Counted from the stretch's first letter, positions 24,023 through 28,512 are shown. The stretch is DNA of 53,440 nucleotides from an uncultured Bacilli bacterium (GCA_947588935.1 CANQAU010000001.1:1-53440); one strand, 5' to 3'. Translations and numbers: made by a program. Notes: a model not told the origin generated them from the letters alone.

Positions 24023-24766
24023 ATGTATCAAATTGCATTCGTATTTTTAAAATTCCTTTTGTTCAGCCTTTTTGGATACATAGCAGAAATGTCAATGTGT
24101 ATTATAGTAGATCACAAAATAACCAATCGAGGATTTTTATGTGGACCAGTAATTCCAATTTACGGCGTAGGAAGCATCTTTTTAGTAATTTTGTTAGATT
24201 CTCTAAAAAGCAATCCTTGTTTGATATTTATATTCGGAATGCTCATTACCACAGCCATTGAATATATCACAAGCTATATATTAGAAAAAATCTTTCATAA
24301 TCGATGGTGGGATTATTCGGAGAACAAATGGAATGTGAATGGCAGAATTTGTTTATTAAATTCCACACTCTTTGGCATAGGGTCATTAGCAATTATTTAC
24401 ATTGCCAATCCAATTTTTAATCAATTTCTGTCCCAAATGAATCATACCGCATTAATCATTTGTGCCATTCTTTTCTTTTTTGTATTCATCATTGATGTCA
24501 TTTATTCCTGTGTAGTTGCCTATCAACTTCGCAATCAAATTATTGTATTCAGTGAATTAAAAAACCAGAAATTAGCAAAAATTCCATGGATGTTCGAACG
24601 ATTATTAAAACAACGGATGAAACAATTAAAACATTATCCAAAACGATTATTAAACGCTTTCCCATACTTAAAAAAGAGTAATGAAAGAGAATTTGAATTA
24701 GTAAAAAAATGGCAAGATATGGCGAAAAAGAAAAGAAAGAAAAAAAAGAAGAAACGAAAAAAATAA
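24023..24766 (+). CDS. Polytopic membrane protein, CmpB/DUF1113-like ('putative ABC transporter type IV'), with a poly-Lys tail
   Basis: It has several TM segments, and the motif LLFSLFGYIAEM...RGFLCGPVIPIYG is typical of that family. The C-terminus is KKKRKKKKKKRKK. Confidence 0.5.
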   Translation: MYQIAFVFLKFLLFSLFGYIAEMSMCIIVDHKITNRGFLCGPVIPIYGVGSIFLVILLDSLKSNPCLIFIFGMLITTAIEYITSYILEKIFHNRWWDYSENKWNVNGRICLLNSTLFGIGSLAIIYIANPIFNQFLSQMNHTALIICAILFFFVFIIDVIYSCVVAYQLRNQIIVFSELKNQKLAKIPWMFERLLKQRMKQLKHYPKRLLNAFPYLKKSNEREFELVKKWQDMAKKKRKKKKKKRKK

Positions 24767-24842
24767 CAGAAATGTTATTTTTTTTTGAAATAAAAAAGGA
24801 AATGCAAATCCCATCTTGAATATGAATAATGAGGGAGATAAA

Positions 24843-26912
24843 GTGCAAAAAAAATTAATCGTCAAACAACAAGATCAAAAAGACTGTGGAGTATGTTGTC
24901 TTTTATCCATACTAAAATACTTTAAAGGTTACGTTCCGTTAGAACAAATTCGTTTAGATACAAAAACATCAAATCTAGGAACCAGTGCCTTTCATATGGT
25001 TGAAACACTCAAGAAATATGGTTTTGATGCATATGGATGTAAAATCAAAAAAGAAGAATTTTGGAATACGGAGTTTCCTCTTCCAGCCATCGTTCATGTA
25101 GTATTAGATAGTGGACAAAATCATTACATGGTTTTATATGAAAAAAGAAAAGAAAAAGTGGTTTTAATGGATCCTAGTTTTGGAAAGCGAGTGATGACGG
25201 AAAGTGATTTTTTCTGGATATGGTCAGAAGTATTATTAATAGCATATCCAAAAGAAGAAATAATAAAACGGGAACAAACAGATCATAAAATGCAAGTTTT
25301 TTTGACTTATTTAGGAAAAAAGAAAAGTCTTTTTCTCAAATTAATTGGTAGTGAAATGATTTTATTGGTAATAAGTATTGGAAGTTCCTTTTACCTAAAA
25401 GTTGCAAATGCCTTTTTAGAAAGAAAAAACGAAATTCTTTTCATAACTGTCTTTTTTGCTTGGTTATTAATTTTAAAGATTATCATGATGAAAGAAATTT
25501 TGAAAAAGAATCACTCTTTAAATAAACACTTAGAACTTTTACATGTTACAAATTATTTAGATCATGTAAAAAATCTTCCTCTTTCCTTGTTTAAAACAAG
25601 AACCATCGGGGACTATTTAAATCGTTTTTGGGAAAATACGGAAATCAAATACTTATATAGCGAAATAATGAAAAATAAAATTCTCTCAGTCATTACCATT
25701 TTTCTTTGTTTTGTCTTACTATATGGTTATCAAAGTTTCTTCTTTCATTTTTATCTCTTCGTCTTTTTGGTTTTTTCCATTTTTATGCTTTGCATTCATC
25801 AAGAAAACTATCAAAAAGAAAGAGAACGATTAGAAGCAAAATGCCAATATCAAGATCGATTATTAGAAAGGTTAAAGCAAAATGAAGTAATACATCATTT
25901 AGGAATTGAAAAATATACACAACCGAAAGAAGAAGCAGATTTAATTTGTTTTTTAAAACAGAATGAAGAAATCGAAAAATTTAATGAGAACATCAATTGG
26001 TTAGAAAATGCTTTAAAAGAAGGAACGGAATTTTTGTTTCTAGTACTGGGAGTATATCAAATGTCCAAAGGAAAATTAGAAATATTCAACTTTATCATGA
26101 TTGAAACCATCGGTTTTTATTTATTAAATTCCTTGGAAAATTTTGTTCAAACACTTTCGAAAGAAAAGTATTTAAACGAAATCATTCACAAAAATCAAGA
26201 ATTTCTTTCGCTTCCCATCGAAGAAGAAAGAAAAACCGATTCCTTTGAGCAAGGAGATATTTTCTTTAAAAATGTTTCCTTTTCTTATGATAATTATCGC
26301 TATGTATTAAAGGATTTAACCCTATGTATTACAAAAGGAACACATGTACTCTTAATGGGTGAAAGTGGAAGTGGAAAAAGTACAATTTGCAAATTGCTTC
26401 TAAAAGATGAAAAAACAATCAATGGAACAATAGAAATTGGGGACCATAACATTTTGGATATTCAAAAACAAGCATTGCATGAAAAAATAGTCTATTTAAA
26501 TCAAAAAAGTAACTTAATGACTGGAACCATCAAAGAAAATATTGTGATGTATAGACCCTTTCACACTTCGCGATTTGATCAAGTGTGTAAAATTTGTAAA
26601 ATTGAAGAAATTGTTCAAAAAAGACCTCTTCGTTATGAAACAACTATCAATAGTCAAGAAAATAATTTTTCTGGAGGAGAAAAAGCAAGAATTATGTTAG
26701 CAAGAACCCTGTATAAAGATGCCGAAGTCTATCTTTTAGATGAAGCGCTAAGTGAAATAGATGAACAAATGGAAAAAGAAATTATTAAAGACATGCGCGT
26801 TTTTCTGAAAGAAAAAACCGTTTTATATATTAGTCACCGAAAACTAAAAAGTCTATTCGACGAAACAAAGAAATGCGAGGAATGCCATGAAAGAATACTC
26901 ATATCTGAATAA
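24843..26912 (+). CDS. Peptidase-C39-containing ABC transporter (PCAT; exporter and processor of double-glycine-leader peptides)
   Basis: The N-terminal C39 domain has QQDQKDCGVCCL (catalytic Cys) and a downstream His (QNHYMVLY). It has a six-TM region, Walker A GESGSGKST, signature FSGGEKAR, Walker B YLLDEALSEID and an H-loop SHR. The GTG at 24843 is preceded by GAGGGAG; the ORF track starts it at the TTG at 24816. Confidence 0.9.
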   Translation: MQKKLIVKQQDQKDCGVCCLLSILKYFKGYVPLEQIRLDTKTSNLGTSAFHMVETLKKYGFDAYGCKIKKEEFWNTEFPLPAIVHVVLDSGQNHYMVLYEKRKEKVVLMDPSFGKRVMTESDFFWIWSEVLLIAYPKEEIIKREQTDHKMQVFLTYLGKKKSLFLKLIGSEMILLVISIGSSFYLKVANAFLERKNEILFITVFFAWLLILKIIMMKEILKKNHSLNKHLELLHVTNYLDHVKNLPLSLFKTRTIGDYLNRFWENTEIKYLYSEIMKNKILSVITIFLCFVLLYGYQSFFFHFYLFVFLVFSIFMLCIHQENYQKERERLEAKCQYQDRLLERLKQNEVIHHLGIEKYTQPKEEADLICFLKQNEEIEKFNENINWLENALKEGTEFLFLVLGVYQMSKGKLEIFNFIMIETIGFYLLNSLENFVQTLSKEKYLNEIIHKNQEFLSLPIEEERKTDSFEQGDIFFKNVSFSYDNYRYVLKDLTLCITKGTHVLLMGESGSGKSTICKLLLKDEKTINGTIEIGDHNILDIQKQALHEKIVYLNQKSNLMTGTIKENIVMYRPFHTSRFDQVCKICKIEEIVQKRPLRYETTINSQENNFSGGEKARIMLARTLYKDAEVYLLDEALSEIDEQMEKEIIKDMRVFLKEKTVLYISHRKLKSLFDETKKCEECHERILISE

Positions 26913-27318
26913 AATAAGTTATGAAATGGAAGAAGAAAAAAACTCCTTTTCGATTTGGATTGCCTTCTTTATCACTACCATGTTTATTCTTTCATGCACG
27001 TTGGAAATTTCAATTCAAACGCCCGTCAAAGCCATCTACCAACAAGAAACAAAATCGTTAATAATATCATGGCCTTATTATGATTTAGATAAAATTTATA
27101 AATTTGAAAATATGAAAATAGGAAAAGAAATCTATCCGTTTAAAATTCAAAAGATGAGCGATCTTTTATTAACAGACACACAACCAGAAAATTATCAGTT
27201 AATAGAATTACAGATTCCAACATCGTATTTAAACAATCAAGTGATAGAAATCAAATTGTTAGATAAAAAAGAACAGATTATCAAGAAAATATGGAAAATA
27301 GTAAGTGAAGGAGGATAA
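26887..27318 (+). CDS. Small single-pass membrane protein, a putative exporter accessory factor
   Basis: 143 aa with one TM (FSIWIAFFITTMFILSCTL). The start overlaps the PCAT stop (GAGGAA SD), and the stop lies 2 nt before peptide gene A. It is far shorter than HlyD/LcnD-type accessory proteins. Confidence 0.4.
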   Translation: MKEYSYLNKISYEMEEEKNSFSIWIAFFITTMFILSCTLEISIQTPVKAIYQQETKSLIISWPYYDLDKIYKFENMKIGKEIYPFKIQKMSDLLLTDTQPENYQLIELQIPTSYLNNQVIEIKLLDKKEQIIKKIWKIVSEGG

Positions 27319-27320
27319 GA

Positions 27321-27464
27321 ATGAAATTAACAAAAGAAGAATTACAAAAAATTAATGGAGGAGGGGTGTCAATAGGAATCATCGCTTTGGCAATCGGAGC
27401 ATTTGTAACGTTTGTCGCAGGATTTTTAGATGGTTTTGTCCGCCCACAATCTTGCAATGAATAA
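27321..27464 (+). CDS. Double-glycine-leader peptide A (47 aa; not in the ORF track)
   Basis: A GGAGGA SD lies 5 nt upstream of the ATG at 27321. The product is MKLTKEELQKINGG|GVSIGIIALAIGAFVTFVAGFLDGFVRPQSCNE: a typical GG leader followed by a hydrophobic 33-aa core with GxxxG motifs. Confidence 0.75.
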   Translation: MKLTKEELQKINGGGVSIGIIALAIGAFVTFVAGFLDGFVRPQSCNE

Positions 27465-27624
27465 ACTAAAAGAAGAACAACTAATCCAAATTATAGGAGG
27501 AAGCGATCTATTATCGGGAGCATTCCTTTCAGCTTTAGCGAAATGCATCGAATCAATAGCCGATGTCGGAAGAAAAATTGGCTCTGCCATTCGAAGAATA
27601 AAAAATGGAAATCTTTGTCCTTGA
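27457..27624 (+). CDS. Double-glycine-leader peptide B (55 aa; an internal start of the 64-aa track ORF)
   Basis: The ATG at 27457 overlaps the last codons and stop of peptide A (AATGAATAA). The product is MNKLKEEQLIQIIGG|SDLLSGAFLSALAKCIESIADVGRKIGSAIRRIKNGNLCP: a GG leader followed by a cationic amphipathic 40-aa core with two Cys and a GxxxG motif. Confidence 0.75.
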   Translation: MNKLKEEQLIQIIGGSDLLSGAFLSALAKCIESIADVGRKIGSAIRRIKNGNLCP

Positions 27625-27672
27625 AGAAGAAATCGAATAATTATATAATAAAGACAAGAATGGAGGGAGTAT

Positions 27673-28512
27673 ATGAAAAAGAAAAACGGATTTATTGCAG
27701 TATCAGTCATCTACTCCTTCTTTTTAGTCTTTCTAATGATTATGCTATCGGTAACCGTAAACAATGCACAAAATCGAACATTATTATCGGCCATCAAAGA
27801 AGACATTAAATTAAGTTTGAATCAAGATGAAGAATTTATTGTCAACACATTGCCAAATCGTGATAAAACGGATTTATACCAAATAGGAGATGAAGTGAAT
27901 TTTGTAGGAGAATCATGGTTAGTAGTAAATAATAAAGCAGACTCCGTCGTTTTGGTTTTAAAAAGAGCTTTAAATCAAAGGGAAGTGTTAGAATCCTTAA
28001 ACGTAGAAGCCTCTGATGCATACTATTTTAATAATGAATGTACAGAAGCAAGATGTAAAACCAGAATGTGTGCAACATCCTACAGTAGCAATTTCTGCTT
28101 TTATGAATCCGCAGCAAATTATTATTACTATGAATGGGATGAAAGCATTGCCAAAAAAGTCGTAGACAATTGGTTTATTAATAACGATAATTTGCAAAAA
28201 GCTTGTCGCTTACAATATGACATTGCTGCCGATAAGCGAATTTGTACGAAAAATACATTAATAAATATGACCTTTACAGATGGCTTGCAAGAATACGAAG
28301 GATACATTCGCATCCCTACAAGTGAAGAAGCAAATCAAGGGATGACGACTTGGGTTGGAAATAATGGTGGATATTATGCACCGGAAGCGTGGACACTTAC
28401 AAACGCCAATCAAACATTAGGTCAAAGTTATGGATATGATATCAGTGGAAACATACAAGAACACACCCAAACGATGACAATCCGACCTGTCATTGAAGTA
28501 AGAAAAAACTAG
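27673..28512 (+). CDS. Cys-rich exported or anchored protein with a prepilin-like N-terminus
   Basis: GGAGGGAG SD. The N-terminus MKKKNG|FIAVSVIYSFFLVFLMIMLSV resembles class-III (pseudopilin, ComGG-like) signals that lack Glu+5. It has six Cys in the central region, and the C-terminal pattern RIPTSEEA...EAWTLTNAN...IRPVIEV resembles DUF6273-type surface domains (recalled similarity). Confidence 0.4.
   Translation: MKKKNGFIAVSVIYSFFLVFLMIMLSVTVNNAQNRTLLSAIKEDIKLSLNQDEEFIVNTLPNRDKTDLYQIGDEVNFVGESWLVVNNKADSVVLVLKRALNQREVLESLNVEASDAYYFNNECTEARCKTRMCATSYSSNFCFYESAANYYYYEWDESIAKKVVDNWFINNDNLQKACRLQYDIAADKRICTKNTLINMTFTDGLQEYEGYIRIPTSEEANQGMTTWVGNNGGYYAPEAWTLTNANQTLGQSYGYDISGNIQEHTQTMTIRPVIEVRKN

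Follow-up and report, generated by a model that had tools for sequence, protein, structure and literature searches.

A chromosomal locus for paired double-glycine-leader peptides in an uncultured Bacilli bacterium: a candidate two-peptide bacteriocin with its own exporter and a small membrane partner

The class IIb bacteriocins, which include lactococcin G, plantaricins EF and JK, and lactacin F/lactobin A, consist of two peptides whose helices pack through GxxxG motifs. Their genes lie side by side in one operon, the precursors carry double-glycine (GG) leaders whose consensus is well established, and export is carried out by a dedicated ABC exporter with a C39 peptidase domain, i.e., a peptidase-containing ABC transporter (PCAT). 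An accessory protein of the HlyD/LcnD type is common in these systems, albeit not universal. This report describes a locus that resembles them in several ways and departs from them in others. It is located in 53,440 nucleotides (nt) of DNA from an uncultured Bacilli bacterium (GCA_947588935.1, CANQAU010000001.1:1-53440), and this whole stretch will be referred to as the window. The locus comprises four genes, namely an exporter, a protein of 143 amino acids (aa), and the precursors of two short peptides, here called A and B. Judging from its sequence, we consider with moderate confidence that this operon encodes a class IIb-like two-peptide bacteriocin, processed by the PCAT and with translational coupling between the two peptides.

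Peptide A combines a 14-aa double-glycine leader with a 33-aa core that is very hydrophobic and of transmembrane (TM) length (grand average of hydropathy, GRAVY, 1.18); the core has a single Cys, a conserved C-terminal DGFVRPQSC tail, and several GxxxG motifs, including GFLDG, which is conserved in the family. Peptide B has a 15-aa leader of the same type and a 40-aa cationic amphipathic core (net charge +3, hydrophobic moment up to 0.8) that contains GRKIG as its GxxxG motif, a GSAIRR motif, and two Cys at mature positions 15 and 39, the second being the C-terminal one. Read directly, both leaders present hydrophobic residues at positions -4, -7, and -12 and GG at -2/-1, and a scan of the whole window for open reading frames (ORFs) with GG leaders returned A and B as the only two convincing cases. 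For B, AlphaFold2 with a 79-sequence alignment predicts a short leader helix followed by a continuous helix from residue 21 to 50, with a predicted local distance difference test score (pLDDT) of 84 overall and of 92-98 in this helix of about 30 residues. The two genes overlap by 8 nt, the ATG of B lying within the last codons of A (AATGAATAA). The sequence AAGGAGG is a strong Shine-Dalgarno (SD) element for A, and B has none. The calculated monoisotopic masses of the mature peptides are 3367.76 Da (A) and 4156.26 Da (B), so that a disulfide-linked pair of the two would weigh about 7522.01 Da. All these features agree with a preliminary description of the same DNA, which had placed the two genes, with the coordinates and sequences listed in Table 1, behind a C39-ABC exporter and the 143-aa protein, and had pointed to a very hydrophobic A, to a cationic and amphipathic B starting inside A with no SD of its own, and to GxxxG-type motifs in both cores.

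A and B are real genes. Both frames are under purifying selection, with pN/pS values of 0.22 (A) and 0.16 (B) when changes are counted by the Nei-Gojobori method in the window pair and 11 independent close pairs. The locus of the same species is present on two metagenome contigs that are 99.3% identical to the window, and the five differences that these contigs show within A and B amount to four synonymous changes and one conservative Ala-to-Val replacement. Two Logan metagenome contigs are the sole other source of the 47-aa A sequence. The public record of the window contig includes the flanking genes but neither peptide, and B is missing both as the 55-aa form and as the 64-aa ORF that starts at 27430 and encloses it; therefore, the earlier statement that the peptide genes are unannotated, with B masked by a longer frame, holds. 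A 94-aa antisense ORF (27426-27710, minus strand) overlaps A, B, and the start of the 279-aa gene that follows them, and a similar antisense ORF occurs in orthologous loci (same BLAST cluster, five loci); we judged it to be a shadow of the conserved coding strand and not a gene.

Both peptides belong to families. For B, a full HMMER scan (E ≤ 1e-3) that covered 1.84 billion representative proteins recovered 78 full-length homologues of 47-73 aa, which align end to end and correspond to 78 clusters at 50% identity. Their consensus consists of a leader ending in GG and then ..SG..xNA.......D.GRSLGSAIRR...G..C(P), with G14, G15, G38, G42, and C54 conserved in the alignment. None of these relatives has a functional name in any source, and some occur on more than 100 contigs. 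The context of the loci was obtained by looking up five B relatives and by scanning metagenomes with a B sub-alignment, a scan in which one narrow B pattern gave 116 confirmed hits, 80 of them kept. An A-type peptide lies immediately upstream of B in about 80-90 loci and in nearly all those with enough upstream DNA. Members of the A family share a GG leader, a Gly-rich hydrophobic core, and the tail (I/L)G(V/L)(I/V)DG(Y/F/I)xRPxxC(N/R/H), in which G38, P42, and C45 of the alignment are invariant while D37 and R41 are conserved in at least 90% of the sequences. The GxxxG motifs take the family-wide forms G-x-x-D-G in A and G-R-x-x-G in B. Word-index searches, whether started from A, B, or the 143-aa protein, recovered only the query sequences themselves, and literature searches for the motif strings and for the exporter type discussed below (Mbov_0121) returned nothing relevant.

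A search of the two cores against hidden Markov models (HMMs), a check proposed in the preliminary description, had a divided outcome. Peptide A matches NCBIfam TIGR03949, the lactobin A/cerein 7B family of class IIb bacteriocins, with 31.1 bits (E 1.4e-7) against a curated cut-off of 21.5, whereas B has no match to this model and its core is covered by no Pfam or NCBIfam model at all. At E ≤ 1e-4, TIGR03949 is matched by 22 of the 54 members of the A family, so that more than half fall short, and the match of the window peptide ends at the DG of GxxDG, leaving the tail (Y/F)xRPxxC(N/R) beyond the model. The early proposal of a new bacteriocin family stands for B, and fits the 143-aa protein too, for which neither Pfam nor NCBIfam has a model; A, as a refinement, scores above the cut-off of a described family.

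The pairing of the two peptides is conserved: each related locus contains exactly one A and one B, and the gene order exporter-(p14x)-A-B, where p14x designates the family of the 143-aa protein, is maintained across these loci. Overlaps of 8, 4, or 1 nt between A and B are found in 18 of 70 distinct pairs, and in the rest the two genes are mostly 5 to 18 nt apart. The 8-nt overlap of the window is kept, as AATGATTAA, in L008, the orthologous locus of a related species, which comes from a metagenome-assembled genome (GCA_910587775.1). What had been described in the window as an adjacent and tightly coupled GG-leader pair is, in order and in tight spacing or overlap, a property of about 70 distinct pairs. 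Two loci have a different appearance. One has a gene resembling S-adenosylmethionine-dependent methyltransferases between A and B (L058:600-1310), which elsewhere are at most about 30 nt apart; the other (L067:5700-6000) has an intact B and an intact third ORF, of a kind discussed later, while A is seemingly degraded to an in-frame ...GYVRPLKCN and no exporter was detected upstream.

Cysteine is also distributed in a regular manner, since the Cys of A is invariant and at least 90% of the B family retain the C-terminal Cys. Among the 70 distinct mature pairs, 61 have one Cys in each peptide, five have two in A and one in B, and four, the window pair included, have one in A and two in B; the motif search behind these pairs demanded at least one Cys per peptide, hence only the count of exactly one is informative. 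The HMMER list of B homologues, to which this bias does not apply, consists mostly of sequences with one Cys too, and P0076, the sole B without this Cys, is paired with an A that has two. A single conserved C-terminal Cys in each peptide suggests a disulfide-linked A-S-S-B heterodimer, and a bond between the peptides rather than an internal one is indicated because the C-terminal Cys is the only one conserved in B and A has one conserved Cys as well. No precedent for an inter-peptide disulfide in two-peptide bacteriocins was found in the searchable literature. The internal bond that the preliminary description had envisaged for the two Cys of B, between Cys15 and Cys39, is unlikely, as the family keeps only the C-terminal Cys, most B peptides have just one, and B is predicted to be a single long helix.

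Table 1. Features of the locus, with window positions or, for the third ORF, positions in the related loci named
Feature	Location	Strand	Description
Exporter	24843-26912	+	PCAT with C39 peptidase, transmembrane domain, and ATPase, assigned from Pfam domains and motifs
143-aa protein (p14x family)	26887-27318	+	Single-pass membrane protein; TM helix and beta-rich domain, predicted
Peptide A precursor	27321-27464	+	47 aa; leader MKLTKEELQKINGG, core GVSIGIIALAIGAFVTFVAGFLDGFVRPQSCNE
Peptide B precursor	27457-27624	+	55 aa; leader MNKLKEEQLIQIIGG, core SDLLSGAFLSALAKCIESIADVGRKIGSAIRRIKNGNLCP
279-aa protein	27673-28512	+	Pilin-like N-terminus KKNGFIAVSVIYSF..., several Cys
Third ORF, examples among 17 loci	L018:1330-1479; L023:5760-5909; L027:1200-1379; L041:6146-6322		
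Third ORF, further examples	L050:6153-6323; L088:749-898; L099:786-962		

The exporter contains the domains expected of a PCAT (Peptidase_C39, E 1.4e-32; ABC_tran, E 7e-28; Pfam), and both its catalytic set, made of the Q..DCG motif, a His, and an Asp, and its Walker motifs are intact. Numbered from the TTG start, the motifs are QQDQKDCG at 18-25, NHYMV at 102, and MDP at 118, along with Walker A, FSGGE, Walker B, and ISHR. A homologous exporter is encoded upstream of A and B in every related locus with enough DNA, and, among the 39 distinct full-length exporters that these loci provide, 37 have the Q..DCG motif. Depending on the start, the window ORF has 689-698 aa, the options being TTG 24816 (longest ORF), ATG 24822 (696 aa, as in the public record), and GTG 24843 (689 aa). 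The gene probably starts at GTG 24843 or ATG 24822, not at TTG 24816, and the GTG is favoured by the SD GAGGGAG ahead of it and by the orthologue in L008, which begins MQKKVIIKQ. Regarding classification, the exporter reaches 299.8 bits with NCBIfam TIGR01193, below the cut-off of 523.85, and 287 bits with the model of the Mycoplasma Mbov_0121 family peptidase domain-containing ABC transporter, whose cut-off is 500; such near-equal scores hint at a branch shared with Mollicutes-related lineages. A scan of a genome collection of species representatives with the exporter returned distant ABC domains only.

The gene of the 143-aa protein overlaps the end of the exporter gene by 26 nt, up to the exporter stop, and ends 2 nt ahead of A. 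The public record gives this protein as 130 aa starting from Met14; however, the ATG at 26887 is preceded by the SD GAGGAA and the members of the p14x family share the longer N-terminus, so that the starts in the public record look doubtful for this protein, as they do for the exporter. The predicted topology includes a short cytoplasmic N-terminus, one TM helix, and a beta-rich domain outside the membrane; single-sequence AlphaFold2 (pLDDT 60) gives a TM helix at residues 6-34 and eight strands in a beta-sandwich-like arrangement. No match was found in Pfam, NCBIfam, PADLOC, or PDB sequences, and Foldseek, applied to this low-confidence model, yielded generic immunoglobulin (Ig)-like sandwich matches only. 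About 58 loci, or roughly three quarters, have an ORF of 135-160 aa, detected by HMM, in the interval that separates the exporter from A, and some 15-20 loci do without it; the 48 non-identical ORFs at this position, the window protein included, form one BLAST-connected family. That the protein could be a truncated HlyD was considered and rejected, given the absence of Pfam HlyD matches in 32 members, of PDB matches, and of Foldseek matches other than Ig-like ones. The preliminary description had noted the 143-aa protein in place of an accessory of HlyD/LcnD size, which accords with the absence of HlyD matches in its family. A role as exporter accessory is favoured by the fact that its gene is translationally coupled to that of the exporter, and an immunity protein is the alternative candidate.

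In the mechanism that we propose, A and B would be made in roughly equal amounts through translational coupling, given that the start codon of B overlaps the stop of A. The C39 domain of the exporter would recognise the double-glycine leaders and cut after GG, and the ABC part would export the cores, with the 143-aa single-pass protein probably helping the exporter. Outside the cell, the hydrophobic helix of A and the cationic amphipathic helix of B would pair via GxxDG and GRxxG, and the pair would insert into target membranes and permeabilise them; the lone Cys conserved near each C-terminus would probably join the two as A-S-S-B. We thus infer from sequence features that the precursors are cut and exported, that the cores pair and become disulfide-bonded, and that the product is antimicrobial. 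The conserved pair, the GG leaders, the C39 exporter, and the GxxxG motifs all support the candidate class IIb-type bacteriocin locus put forward in the preliminary description.

How the producer would protect itself is suggested by some of the relatives. In the window no small TM ORF follows B, in line with the earlier remark that no small TM immunity gene comes after the peptides. In 17 of 77 related loci, the window not being one of them, a third ORF of 45-58 aa has its start overlapping the stop of B. Its product has no GG leader and shows a basic N-terminus, one TM helix, the motif G(R/Q)xxGTxxR, and often a C-terminal Cys, and hhalign indicates homology with the C-terminal half of B (probability 92%, E 5e-7). 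It is plausible that this product is an immunity factor acting through membrane-anchored mimicry of B. An extended version of this idea, which we offer tentatively and regard as rather doubtful as a whole, combines a covalent A-S-S-B heterodimer with immunity that, where present, is conferred by the leaderless, membrane-anchored copy of the B C-terminus, and with a non-antagonistic role where such a copy is lacking. The copy of the B half may then intercept the partner peptide, and in the lineages without it, that of the window included, the pair may be a stably inherited chromosomal trait.

The surroundings of the module have been compared in the window and in other loci. L008 has full synteny with the window, the shared order being YceD, L32, MurD-like, GerM, GerE, SpoIIIAH, CmpB, and the exporter, followed (with the sizes of L008) by the 142-aa protein, A, B, a 281-aa protein, LemA, DUF2207, and MscL. 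Identity between the two genomes is 75% for CmpB and 78% for LemA, and drops to 53% for the exporter, 41% for the 143-aa protein, 51% for A, 52% for B, and 54% for the 279-aa protein. Since the module genes are 41-54% identical against 75-78% for CmpB and LemA, the module evolves much faster than its flanks. Fast evolution relative to flanking genes is typical of competition loci. The presence of the GerM, GerE, and SpoIIIAH genes also suggests that the lineage of the window forms spores.

In other relatives, the gene for ribosomal protein S21 (rpsU) is located 110-410 nt downstream of B on the same strand in 37 of 69 loci (e.g., L013:6440-6634), YqeY follows in 38 loci, and a gene for an RsmD-like methyltransferase precedes the exporter in 15 of 31 loci, often together with YlbD/YlbE. 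The rpsU/yqeY site is a conserved housekeeping insertion site, distinct from the CmpB/LemA site of the window. The GC content is about 30% throughout the window, with no compositional island, and searches of IMG/VR, PLSDB plasmids, and GenBank phages gave no match to A or B. Histidine kinases and response regulators are missing from the annotated related loci and, in the window, from the roughly 7 kb that flank the module on each side, and the only matches of the window to PADLOC defence models were generic ATPases. On the basis of the uniform composition, the housekeeping neighbours, and the lack of plasmid and phage copies, the module behaves like a trait that uncultured low-GC Bacillota have carried in the chromosome for a long time, and its setting looks more like that of a stably inherited trait than like a typical strain-variable bacteriocin island. 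The core chromosomal neighbourhood beside CmpB and the absence of a quorum-sensing module, both pointed out in the preliminary description, are borne out here, although CmpB itself turns out to be lineage-specific.

Both CmpB and the 279-aa gene are lineage-specific and fall outside the conserved module. The CmpB-like membrane protein (PF06541) ends, at 24716-24763 of the window, in a poly-Lys/Arg tail, AKKKRKKKKKKRKK, which is kept in L008 as KKKKNRKKKKRKK. The 279-aa gene appears to have a promoter-like element of its own, TTGAAG-17-TATAAT at 27621-27649, as well as its own SD, and an orthologue at the same position was found only in L008-L011. Its conserved N-terminal motif, MKKKNGFIAVSVIYSFFLVFLMIMLS, is pilin-like but without the usual Glu at +5, and the protein has no Pfam, NCBIfam, or PADLOC match. 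Its association with the module is uncertain. In an unrelated locus, a 385-aa protein with the same N-terminal motif is encoded 2.3 kb downstream of B (L034:3446-4603).

Several observations weigh against a bacteriocin. A recognisable immunity gene is absent in the window and in about 78% of the related loci, and the module occupies conserved housekeeping positions, with complete synteny in L008 and no match in plasmids or phages. The accessory of about 450 aa of the HlyD/LcnD type is lacking, and a single-pass protein of 140-150 aa from a new family takes its position. The TIGR03949 score of A derives mostly from the leader and the Gly-rich hydrophobic stretch, its characteristic tail being uncovered. 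With two Cys in B and one in A, the window pair would retain a free thiol after forming a 1:1 disulfide, and no consistent charge covariation was found between the Asp of GxxDG in A and the Arg of GRxxG in B. Taken together, the lack of an immunity gene and a setting like that of core genes point to a non-antagonistic role as the main rival, in which the exported pair serves the producer as a membrane or cell-envelope, kin-directed, or developmental (e.g., sporulation) factor; kept as a core trait of the lineage, such a pair would need no immunity gene. We rate this explanation as unlikely, while acknowledging that it accounts for the conserved positions among housekeeping genes, the single A/B pair per locus, the purifying selection on A and B, the lack of an immunity gene in most loci, the failure to find plasmid or phage copies in the searched collections, and, in the window, the neighbouring sporulation genes GerM, GerE, and SpoIIIAH. 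These genes, however, are not a general companion of the module, many related loci lying elsewhere, and the GG leaders, the GxxxG motifs, the association of a hydrophobic with a cationic amphipathic peptide, and the TIGR03949 match are all features of class IIb. Moreover, a producer-serving factor sits poorly with a module that evolves much faster than its flanks and with the B-derived membrane ORF that, in some loci, resembles an immunity factor.

Two further explanations assign different tasks to the peptides. Only B might be active outside, with A remaining in the membrane of the producer after removal of its leader, as an anchor, a chaperone, or an immunity element. The core of A is indeed hydrophobic enough and long enough to span a membrane, B is always accompanied by A, and the conserved Cys of each could tether B to A; yet A has a bona fide GG leader, conserved in its family and of the kind that marks exported substrates, it scores as a class IIb bacteriocin, and equally hydrophobic partners are known among class IIb peptides, so that we regard this arrangement as improbable. 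Less probable still is a secreted signalling pheromone of the ComC, BlpC, or EntF type, represented by A, B, or both and processed by the exporter. What speaks for it is a weak match of B to the EntF induction-factor model (24.6 bits, below the cut-off of 35) and weak ComC leader matches of A and B, also below cut-off, but all of these are confined to the leader, and no histidine kinase or response regulator accompanies the peptides within the distances given above. The mature peptides, of 33 and 40 aa and with one TM-like helix, are also unlike known GG pheromones, and obligatory, conserved pairing is no pheromone trait. A class IIb-like two-peptide bacteriocin, exported by its own PCAT, is the reading that we prefer.

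Whatever the function, the locus is no single odd case. It belongs to a large family, so far unnamed, in which exported peptides occur in pairs and are accompanied by a separate branch of exporters and a new small membrane partner, and current annotation is largely blind to this family. Should it prove to be a bacteriocin, uncultured low-GC anaerobes would possess in it a widespread means of competition, available as a compact four-gene cassette for expression, and both a two-peptide mechanism based on a disulfide link and immunity through mimicry of a peptide could be examined on it. Otherwise, it would be a PCAT-exported peptide pair with a housekeeping-like role.

Set against the described systems, the exporter has in common with PCATs such as ComA, LagD, LcnC, and PCAT1, i.e., those covered by TIGR01193, the domain order C39-TM-ATPase, the catalytic Cys, His, and Asp, the oxyanion Gln, and the Walker and signature motifs, and it differs from them in forming a divergent branch that stays below the cut-off of both TIGR01193 and the Mbov_0121-type model. 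The 143-aa protein of the window is similar to the HlyD-type accessories LcnD and ComB in being single-pass, with its bulk predicted outside the cell, and in the translational coupling of its gene to the exporter gene, but p14x proteins have about 145 aa instead of about 450, and no coiled-coil hairpin is predicted. PedC, the small accessory protein of pediocin, offers another comparison; on visual inspection p14x lacks a CxxC motif, hence it is not a thiol-disulfide oxidoreductase like PedC. With the class IIb systems, the locus shares an operon in which two GG-leader peptide genes are neighbours, a C39-ABC exporter dedicated to them, GxxxG motifs in both A and B, and a hydrophobic peptide partnered by one with a cationic amphipathic helix, each of 30-40 residues when mature; A, in addition, exceeds the cut-off of the lactobin A/cerein 7B family, with the A-family tail lying outside that model. 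It differs from them in that the window has no adjacent small immunity gene and no three-component regulatory system, in the one conserved C-terminal Cys of each peptide, and in being placed, in uncultured low-GC lineages, at conserved sites among housekeeping genes instead of on plasmids or variable islands. What is new here is the B family and the small membrane partner, together with the distinctive Cys pattern and, where present, a B-derived candidate immunity factor.

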